Assembly (NCBI RefSeq): GCF_003334405.1
Contig: NZ_QOWM01000026.1
Direction: 5' to 3' (one strand)
Length of the DNA stretch: 37,729 nucleotides
Source of the DNA: Escherichia coli
Lineage (GTDB): Bacteria; Pseudomonadota; Gammaproteobacteria; Enterobacterales; Enterobacteriaceae
The notes under the pieces were generated by a model. The model worked only from the letters and a program-made list of their open reading frames with translations. It searched no databases and had not been told where the DNA came from. This document shows, one piece after another, positions 18,065 through 19,231 of this stretch. Numbering within the stretch: the stretch's first letter is position 1; each line of letters starts with the position of its first letter. The translations under genes were made by a program, and so were the position numbers.

Positions 18065-18349
18065 ATGAAAATGGCCAATCATCCCCGCCCGGGGGACATT
18101 ATTCAGGAATCACTGGACGAACTTAATGTCAGCCTGCGCGAGTTTGCCAGAGCAATGGAAATTGCTCCCTCAACGGCAAGCCGATTGCTGACAGGAAAAG
18201 CAGCTTTGACGCCAGAAATGGCGATTAAACTTTCCGTGGTGATCGGCAGTTCGCCGCAAATGTGGCTGAATCTGCAAAACGCCTGGAGTCTGGCAGAGGC
18301 AGAAAAAACAGTGGATGTGTCGCGATTACGCCGTCTGGTTACGCAATAA
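18065..18349 (+). CDS. yddM: HigA-like antitoxin / XRE-family HTH DNA-binding protein
   Basis: ORF track 120 aa from 17987; I use ATG 18065 ([14 protein letters not shown]..., 94 aa); helix-turn-helix segment [21 protein letters not shown]. Confidence 0.8.
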
Positions 18350-18350
18350 A

Positions 18351-18378
18351 AAAATGGCACTTTATAAAGCGCCATTTA
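18351..18378. terminator. hairpin terminator after yddM (copy A of a duplicated hairpin)
   Basis: aaaatggcac tttataaa gcgccattt: stem with one mismatch, flanked by A- and T-tracts. Confidence 0.5.
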
Positions 18379-18401
18379 GAACTGATGACAAACGCAACAT
18401 T

Positions 18402-18430
18402 GCCTGATGCGCTACGCTTATCAGGCCTAC
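18402..18430. repeat. REP element
   Basis: gcctgatgcgctacgcttatcaggcctac, classic REP palindrome; a 29-mer about 80 percent identical recurs at 35611. Confidence 0.8.
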
Positions 18431-18467
18431 ACGTTCACTGCAATCTATTGGATTTGAAGGGTTTTCA

Positions 18468-18499
18468 TGCCGGATAAGGCGTTCACGCCGCATCCGGCA
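18468..18499. repeat. REP element (opposite orientation), forming a BIME with 18402
   Basis: tgccggataaggcgttcacgccgcatccggca; a copy differing by one base recurs at 35655. Confidence 0.85.
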
Positions 18500-18528
18500 T
18501 GAACAAAGCCTACGTTGTCTACAATATG

Positions 18529-18556
18529 AAAATGGCGCCTTTTACAGCGCCATTTT
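18529..18556. terminator. bidirectional hairpin terminator after fdnI (copy B)
   Basis: Perfect 10-bp stem aaaatggcgc / gcgccatttt with 8-nt loop; 22 nt beyond fdnI stop. Confidence 0.65.
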
Positions 18557-18577: not shown

Positions 18578-19231
18578 TTATATCCCTTCTTCACTCTCTT
18601 TTTTCGCTTCTGCCTTCTCGATTTCACGATACCAGCGCGGATGGTGTTTCTTCGCCCAGCGACGACTTACCTTCCCTTCGATCATCCCTTTAATCGATCC
18701 TTTCACCCAAAATGCCATATACATATGGATCAGGATGGCGTGGATCAGGATGATACCCGCAGCCGCGTGGATCAGCAGGCTGTAGCGAACAACCTGCATC
18801 GGGAAGTACTGCGCAAAGTACGGACGCCAGATAATCACCCCGGTCACCAGCAGCACGAAAATCATGCTCATGATCGACCAGAACATCATCTTTTGCCCGG
18901 CGTTGTACTTACCGACATCCGCCACTTTATGCTCATTGCCTTTCAATACTTCGACAATGTTCAACAGCCACGGAATATCTTTCTTATCCGGGATGTTGTG
19001 ATGCACAAAACGCACAAACATAAACATCAGTGCGACGAAAATCGCAATGCCGAAGAACGGGTGCAAAATGCGTCCCATCTGCGGCGTACCGAAGGTTTGC
19101 GTCAGCCATTGCAGCGTCGGGAAGAAGAACGAAATCCCGGACAGCGCCACCAGGAAGAAGCAAATCACCACGGTCCAGTGACAGGCGCGATCAATAAATT
19201 TGGTGCGCACAATCATTTTCGACTTACTCAT
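18578..19231 (-). CDS. fdnI: formate dehydrogenase-N gamma subunit (cytochrome b556)
   Basis: ORF track 231 aa; I use internal ATG ([12 protein letters not shown]..., 217 aa) preceded by AGGAGG; start overlaps fdnH stop. Confidence 0.92.

Follow-up and report, generated by a model that had tools for sequence, protein, structure and literature searches.

A BIME-1 element between yddM and fdnI of Escherichia coli lies within a duplicated terminator stem-loop, a footprint that recurs at other BIME-1 loci

At the facing 3' ends of yddM and fdnI in Escherichia coli, a complete BIME-1 element lies between two direct copies of one terminator stem-loop. This arrangement very probably arose when a single BIME-1 inserted at one bidirectional intrinsic terminator common to the two genes and duplicated its 26-bp stem-loop. 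The stem-loop is present twice, both copies abut the constant ends of the element, an empty E. coli allele and the outgroups carry one hairpin, and the same footprint recurs elsewhere. No other non-coding repeats in E. coli are as abundant as REP and BIME sequences. The footprint bears on how they move, on what they choose as a target and on how that target is cut.

The window, by which we mean the whole 37.7-kb stretch of DNA that was analyzed, contains yddM and fdnI as convergent genes separated by a spacer of 228 bp, with the yddM stop codon 2 nt upstream of the left hairpin copy (Table 1). Directly upstream of yddM, an intact HigB/RelE-like toxin gene was observed in B2 E. coli and in Citrobacter (L005, L006 1-370; L071 1223-1785; L075 1857-1948); it is missing in K-12-like strains and in the window. 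Citrobacter carries an additional pyrophosphatase-like gene between fdnI and yddM, and Salmonella has no yddM, so that its fdnI hairpin directly faces adhP. The only Rfam match in the window above the gathering score is SECIS_3 (22528-22586, minus strand, 84 bits) within fdnG, where the selenocysteine codon of formate dehydrogenase-N would lead one to expect it.

Table 1. Features of the yddM-fdnI region, in coordinates of the window.
Feature	Coordinates	Strand	Description
Region	window of 37.7 kb		maeA-adhP-yddM / fdnI-fdnH-fdnG of E. coli
yddM CDS	18065..18349	+	HigA-family antitoxin-like, 94 aa; translation, RefSeq annotation of identical DNA
Left hairpin copy (L), probable left target-site duplication	18352..18377		palindromic core AAATGGCACTTTATAAAGCGCCATTT; A-run on its left side
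BIME-1	18378..18529	+	152 nt; left arm, Y REP, linker, inverted Z1 REP, right arm
Left terminal arm	18378..18401	+	AGAACTGATGACAAACGCAACATT
Y-type REP (palindromic unit)	18402..18430	+	GCCTGATGCGCTACGCTTATCAGGCCTAC; weak Rfam matches to REP-derived families
Linker between REP tails (L motif)	18431..18463		33 nt; homologous to the BIME-1 family linker
Z1-type REP, inverted	18464..18503	-	arms 18464-18482 and 18485-18503 (repeat finder); naRNA4-like Rfam match, E = 2e-4
Right terminal arm ('B' motif)	18504..18529	+	ACAAAGCCTACGTTGTCTACAATATGA
Right hairpin copy (R), probable right target-site duplication	18530..18555		palindromic core AAATGGCGCCTTTTACAGCGCCATTT; perfect 12-13 bp stem on both strands
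fdnI CDS	18578..19231	-	formate dehydrogenase-N gamma subunit; translation, annotation

The repeat finder detected a direct repeat of 34 nt with 82% identity (18344-18377 and 18522-18555), with a start-to-start spacing of 178 nt. The palindromic cores of the two copies are identical at 22 of 26 positions, and the copies have no exact 11-mer in common. When the window was searched with the hairpin pattern AAATGGCGC-N8-GCGCCATTT, allowing up to 3 mismatches, the two hairpins were the only matches; 100 shuffles of the window averaged 0.05 matches and never yielded two. The alignment score of the left against the right copy was 34, compared with a maximum of 20 among 650 permuted flank pairs. In the 5,426 complete E. 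coli genomes, no other locus has the hairpin, and the median number of places per genome is one. The sequence-only reading had described two near-identical hairpins in direct order around a pair of inverted REPs and had named their pairwise alignment as a check, and both the arrangement and the alignment are confirmed; the starts that it gave, near 18351 and 18529, each precede the palindromic core by one base. The divergence between L and R, 15% of positions, is well above what is usual among E. coli alleles, which indicates either that the insertion event is old or that the copies evolve fast.

Both hairpins fold on both strands with z-scores of -3.8 to -6.1 relative to shuffled controls. 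The predicted energy of the right copy is -18.7 kcal/mol on the plus strand and -20.8 kcal/mol on the minus strand. On the plus strand, the left copy has a stem with a mismatch (-10.2 kcal/mol) followed by AGAACUG, so that its designation as the yddM terminator applies only in a weak form; on the minus strand, it has a clean stem with a U7 tail, makes a good terminator and was flagged by the terminator scan.

The lengths of the element (152 nt) and of the hairpin (26 nt) add up to the repeat spacing of 178 nt. With positions 18379-18528 (150 nt) as the query, other intergenic copies in E. coli matched from query positions 1-3 to 147-150 at 84-86% identity. These include the copies at entD-fepA and uspB-pitA, and the similarity ends at the hairpin edges. 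Aligned BIME-1 copies were found in five Escherichia species. The left arm, the 'A' motif of the older nomenclature, is kept as GAGA(C/A)TGATGACAAACGCAAAA at the left end of every copy, and the right arm as AACAAAGCGCAC(G/T)TTGTCAACAATCTGA at the right end of every copy. The terminal inverted repeats are imperfect, GAGACTGATGACAAACG on the left matching the reverse complement of the right, TCAGATTGTTGACAAAG, at about 14 of 17 positions by eye. The earlier proposal that a REP cluster had inserted here is therefore upheld as to the insertion and revised as to its content, which is a complete 152-nt BIME-1 with conserved terminal arms.

The BIME-1 DNA has a fold z-score of -5.5, and its minimum-energy structure consists of two separate REP hairpins, not one long hairpin. 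In the linker (18431-18463), the IHF consensus WATCAANNNNTTR had no match with one mismatch or fewer; the best match there has 2 mismatches by eye, and that of the family consensus has 1. The scan for this consensus returned 34 matches against 35 expected. Rfam matches in the region to REP-derived families (naRNA4, ES036) were all below threshold, and REP features are absent from the NC_000913.3 annotation as used. The window holds a second REP pair at 35609-35688, between convergent ORFs, made up of a degenerate Y-like unit, a 15-nt linker and a Z2-type unit. This pair has neither BIME-1 arms nor a duplicated flanking hairpin, and the hairpin footprint may therefore be specific to BIME-1.

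We surveyed the alleles of the locus in 5,426 complete E. coli genomes, sampling about 40 of 5,474 records per search, and found three main spacer lengths. The 50-bp spacer, which has one perfect hairpin, AAAAATGGCGCTTCTTAAAGCGCCATTTT, and no BIME, accounts for about 44% of genomes (about 2,300 to 2,400). The 228-bp spacer, which is the hairpin-BIME-hairpin arrangement of the window, accounts for about 38% (about 2,070), and the 406-bp spacer, with three hairpins and two BIME units arranged as two tandem 178-bp units, for about 18%, including K-12 MG1655. At least one unit was present in 3,025 genomes; given the roughly 2,070 with exactly one, about 955 genomes would have two units and about 2,400 none. 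A single genome contained at most four hairpin places, and genomes with four hint at three-unit alleles. Escherichia sp. L614-1 has the ordinary one-unit allele.

The exact single hairpin was found in 2,299 genomes of the empty group and is uniform. Its stem of 12-13 bp (-16 to -17 kcal/mol) is followed by U4 on the plus strand and U7 on the minus strand; with a GC-rich stem-loop and a U-run on each strand, it is a predicted bidirectional intrinsic terminator. The core of the left copy equals this hairpin at 22 of 26 positions. The empty allele has exactly the flank that L has on its left and exactly the flank that R has on its right, as an empty site should when it is compared with a target duplication. 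In K-12, the two BIMEs are identical over 148 nt, marking a recent tandem duplication, and the middle hairpin resembles R but for one additional substitution (L002 2701-3085).

Two further alleles were observed. In strain 47538, the A-run that borders the single hairpin at its 5' foot has received an insertion of IS200C, an element encoding a Y1 transposase (L003, about 482-1186); this allele occurs in about 5% of complete E. coli genomes in a spread sample, and the hairpin stays single. In the laboratory-derived strain EC0026B_R1, a 34-bp deletion between AAA microhomologies takes out the right hairpin copy (L004, about 640-690), and fdnI is thus left without its proximal terminator copy.

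Besides E. coli, protein cluster look-ups returned Salmonella, Citrobacter and more distant genera. Citrobacter freundii has one fdnI hairpin, ATGGCACTAC-CGAT-GTAGCGCCAT, and no BIME; the same holds for C. farmeri, Salmonella enterica and a metagenomic relative, each with one fdnI hairpin. These hairpins belong to the GGCGC/GCGCC stem family, as in E. coli. The presence of one related hairpin without a BIME in Salmonella and Citrobacter argues that the single hairpin is ancestral. Compared with the single hairpin (S), L and R each have 4 differing positions, and the two differ from each other at 6; no single crossover between L and R yields S, the nearest product still being 3 positions away. 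The diagnostic substitutions of L and R are the same in K-12-like and B2 strains (e.g., Nissle 1917), which points to one old insertion event at yddM-fdnI. The idea that one ancestral bidirectional terminator was duplicated by the insertion, put forward from the window alone, thus gains support from the empty alleles, the outgroups, the alignment of the copies and the absence of a suitable crossover product: E. coli genomes lacking the REP pair have one hairpin at exactly the same site, and the relatives without REPs have one hairpin, not two.

The same footprint was found at other BIME-1 loci. At uspB-pitA, a AGCGGGCCAG(TAAA)CTGACCCGCTC hairpin stands on either side of the element; the locus is filled in 1,940 genomes, and the remaining spans are 174 bp shorter with one hairpin copy. 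An empty allele with one CCGCCGGGGTAACCGGCGGTG hairpin also exists at rutG-ymdF, where K-12-like strains are filled (hairpin-BIME-hairpin). In a divergent E. coli lineage, BIME-1 lies reversed at this same hairpin, and the hairpin is duplicated there too (L074, about 296-495; L025). The two opposite BIMEs are 85.6% alike and their flanks 90-96% alike; because the elements are less alike than the flanks, they appear to be independent insertions into one target hairpin. An inversion between the hairpin copies was rejected, since the BIMEs differ as much as unrelated family members. A locus downstream of zapB was dropped as a filled/empty pair, as E. coli genomes matched its left flank only.

Species-representative genomes were scanned with a pattern that covered both the left arm and the Z1 junction. 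The scan returned 54 loci, of which about 44 were in five Escherichia species, one was in Pseudocitrobacter and the rest were chance matches in unrelated phyla. After array copies were left out and orthologous loci merged, 26 distinct loci remained, and 650 permuted flank pairs served as the null. The permutation test was at first inflated by arrays of Escherichia sp. MOD1-EC7003 with common spacer hairpins and was redone on these non-redundant, non-array loci. At 15 of the 26, the score between left and right flanks exceeded the permuted maximum (22-44 versus 20), and both copies lay within 3 nt of the element ends in all 15; 16 of the 26 were above the 99th percentile, and two or three others had visibly diverged copies. 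In a BLAST-based census of all retrieved DNA, 15 of 32 loci were strictly positive, and about 4 more had diverged copies.

The duplicated segments are 16-29 nt long, fold as stem-loops and are unrelated from locus to locus, their length tracking that of the stem-loop. Of 16 cases, 14 have a T-rich run after the right copy and 11 have an A-rich run before the left copy. The junctions are constant: a stem-loop is followed by GAGA(C/A)TGATGAC at one end of the element, and CAACAATCTGA at the other end is followed by a stem-loop and then the T-run. The junction motifs are GAGA(C/A)TGATGACAAACGCAA at the left element end and GTCAACAATCTGA at the right. A tentative orientation rule, in which the T-run adjoins the right arm, is drawn from a small number of one-directional cases, 5 as against 2 ambiguous ones.

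About 40-50% of BIME-1 loci have no two-sided duplication, and several have a hairpin on one side only, which may reflect decay of the duplication or a second insertion mode. The BIME-1 at entD-fepA, which lies within an operon and is kept in five Escherichia species, has no flanking hairpin and at most TTAG on each side (L007 401-550 and five other sequences); it is either an old copy whose duplication has decayed or the product of another insertion mode. Escherichia sp. MOD1-EC7003 has far more pattern-matching BIME-1 copies than other species (L050 and four other sequences), including BIME-1 arrays with short GC-rich hairpin spacers that differ within an array, some of them recurring across loci. 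Repeated insertion into one hairpin does not account for these arrays.

Taken by itself, the yddM-fdnI locus is a polymorphic BIME-1 of the ordinary kind. Statistical support for the duplicated-terminator footprint is robust, and the footprint recurs with different hairpins at many loci in several species. The sequence-only reading had taken the duplication as a footprint of REP mobilisation at one locus; it holds there, and its scope is wider, as it recurs at most BIME-1 copies examined.

The direction of change could in principle be the reverse, with hairpin-BIME-hairpin as the ancestral state and the single-hairpin alleles as deletions by recombination or slippage between the copies. Direct repeats of 26-34 bp are able to mediate deletion, copy number at the locus varies (zero, one or two units, the K-12 units being identical), filled and empty classes both occur across divergent E. 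coli backgrounds, and absences of BIME-1 were termed 'excisions' by Bachellier 1997, at least as that work is summarized in PMC1187871. We consider this reversal unlikely, however, because a lone hairpin without a BIME is the state in Salmonella and Citrobacter, because the single hairpin is uniform in about 2,300 genomes, and because it is not a mosaic of L on the left and R on the right, every crossover product being at least 3 positions off. Even if some deletions have occurred, two homologous copies that exactly abut the element ends need an original duplication. It is very unlikely, too, that the history ran in two steps, a tandem duplication of the hairpin by slippage coming before a BIME-1 insertion between the copies. 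Although palindromes are slippage-prone and rare tandem-hairpin alleles could escape a sampling of about 40 of 5,474 records per search, no hairpin-hairpin intermediate was seen in that sampling at three polymorphic loci, and the coincidence would be required at 15 loci or more, with both copies no more than 3 nt from constant element ends.

The remaining explanations question whether the hairpins are target DNA at all. If the hairpin were part of the mobile unit, the two copies would be element ends travelling with the BIME, and the MOD1-EC7003 arrays, whose hairpin spacers in some cases recur at several loci, could be read in this way. The flanking hairpins are nevertheless locus-specific and unrelated (scores of 22-44 against a null maximum of 20), at each of the three loci tested they equal the hairpin that resides in the empty allele, and the yddM-fdnI hairpin occurs at its own locus only; the empty allele refutes the idea at yddM-fdnI, and overall we find it scarcely credible. 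Chance or convergence, by which two independent terminators would be merely alike, can appeal to the general shape that terminators have in common (GC stems, A/T runs) and to the lack of an exact 11-mer common to both copies. It is refuted by the two pattern matches where 0.05 are expected, by an alignment score above all 650 permuted pairs and by single-allele flanks that equal the outer flanks of L and R exactly, and its probability is practically negligible.

For the preferred reading, insertion of one BIME-1 at a single shared terminator, the following course of events can be proposed. The target would be recognized as a structure, namely a terminator stem-loop, usually with a T-run after it. 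Because the duplication ends 0-1 nt outside the stem at any stem length, the cuts are expected to be symmetric about the dyad; each strand may be cut at the corresponding foot of the stem, with a stagger equal to the hairpin length. A single enzyme that recognized this hairpin on both strands, or the cruciform when extruded, could nick at the foot. One element strand would then be joined at each end, and repair synthesis over the two single-stranded hairpin overhangs would produce a full copy on each side. The two copies could subsequently serve as direct repeats for unequal exchange, giving the two tandem 178-bp units of K-12.

The likeliest nuclease would be the REP-associated Y1/HUH transposase TnpA-REP (RAYT). 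TnpA-REP binds hairpins in single-stranded DNA and cleaves C↓T, with the consensus CC↓TGAT (PMC3333891). The ends of BIME-1 read GAGAC↓TGATGAC and CAATC↓TGA, with C↓TGA at both. The enzyme is a candidate because of its activity on hairpins in single-stranded DNA, because of C↓TGA at both element ends and because terminator stems, with their trailing T's, present a matching context. IS200C, which encodes a Y1 enzyme, lies at the foot of the yddM-fdnI hairpin in about 5% of genomes, a further hint at Y1 transposases. Y1 transposition of the IS200/IS605 type inserts single-stranded DNA without a sizeable target duplication (PMC2817692). With this known chemistry, a RAYT-only pathway alone does not explain a duplication of 16-29 bp, and host repair or two-strand cuts must be invoked. 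As a tentative generalization, BIME-1, and perhaps REPINs generally, may home to intrinsic-terminator stem-loops rather than land semi-randomly, with the mover enzyme cutting both strands at the hairpin feet, so that the duplication would be the hairpin itself.

As to gene expression, yddM transcripts probably read through the weak left copy and the BIME to the right copy. Transcripts of fdnI would meet the right copy first, and their read-through would then meet the left copy with its clean stem and U7. Read-through of either gene would run through the BIME to the distal hairpin, placing the BIME in both 3' UTRs. Each insertion would thus turn one common terminator into two, set a REP doublet inside read-through 3' UTRs and make direct repeats that drive later copy-number change, as in the zero-, one- and two-unit alleles. 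A duplication of hairpin length, constant ends and natural empty sites together yield a testable model of terminator stem-loop targets and structure-directed staggered cleavage. If the homing reading is true, this would be the first genomic footprint to fix the target, the cut geometry and the element boundaries of REP-associated transposition, and it would account for elements that lie at gene 3' ends, in two 3' UTRs, with a terminator kept on each side. If the literature of the 1990s already noted the footprint, the value of the present data lies in a clean population-scale confirmation.

BIME-1 (RIP/RIB) has been described as a Y REP, a long IHF-binding linker and a Z1 REP, found in single copy at the 3' ends of E. 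coli transcription units (PMC3333891). The yddM-fdnI element resembles this description in its tail-to-tail Y and inverted Z1 REPs, its linker of about 33 nt, its conserved outer arms and its position between convergent genes, and the entD-fepA and uspB-pitA copies can be aligned to it over its full length; its linker has 2 mismatches to the BIME-1 IHF consensus. One extragenic unit, as opposed to a tandem Y-S-Z2 array, lies between the convergent stops in the window, and each of the two units in K-12 is a whole BIME-1 plus a hairpin. Presence and absence of BIME-1 among strains has been reported before (PMC3333891; Bachellier 1997, as summarized in PMC1187871). Unlike in the accessible accounts of BIME-1, the yddM-fdnI element is bracketed by a duplicated terminator stem-loop. 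No target duplication at BIME-1 is described in the accessible literature, a body of work that does not take in the primary BIME-1 papers of the 1990s, where a flanking repeat was possibly noted already. The mechanism of REP/BIME dissemination was called unknown by Ton-Hoang 2012 and Corneloup 2021, and a 2026 preprint, which likewise treats the mode of spread as unknown, speaks of semi-random insertion.

In the REPIN-RAYT system, two inverted REPs form one long hairpin-capable unit that acts as a replicative entity and is mobilized by a REP-associated Y1 tyrosine transposase. BIME-1 likewise has two inverted REPs, and the two-unit allele of K-12 resembles the tandem repeats of REPINs with flanking sequence in Pseudomonas fluorescens (PMC3116915). 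Unlike REPINs, the BIME-1 unit has arms of about 25 nt outside the REPs and would target terminator stem-loops; the REPIN literature, as accessible, describes neither a target preference nor a duplication. BIME-1 is also similar to MITEs in being short and non-coding, in its terminal inverted repeats and in its direct target duplications with filled and empty alleles, the empty allele having a single copy at three loci. The duplications of MITEs, however, are a few bp of fixed length and are made by a DDE transposase, whereas those of BIME-1 are 16-29 bp and follow the size of the stem-loop. According to one review, REPs 'do not display MITE signatures' (Delihas 2011, PMC3184786).

IS200/IS605 elements are comparable in their hairpin-recognizing, single-strand-specific Y1 HUH enzymes, which are related to RAYTs. 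They differ in that they insert 3' of a short specific target without a sizeable duplication, as in the IS200C allele, which keeps one hairpin, whereas at BIME-1 the whole stem-loop is duplicated and the targets are unrelated. The 'insertion with long target duplication' of Helicobacter pylori (Nobusato et al., cited in PMC1643837) likewise combines a polymorphic insert with an unusually long direct duplication; as far as that citation describes it, the inserts are restriction-modification genes and the duplication is not defined by a stem-loop, so that the resemblance is conceptual only. Finally, REP dimers within palindromes are known from Anabaena, Thermomicrobium and Halothiobacillus (Di Nocera 2013, PMC3733652). 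There, as at BIME-1, a REP doublet occupies a palindromic target, but those dimers split one palindrome into halves, whereas BIME-1 has a complete palindrome on each side.
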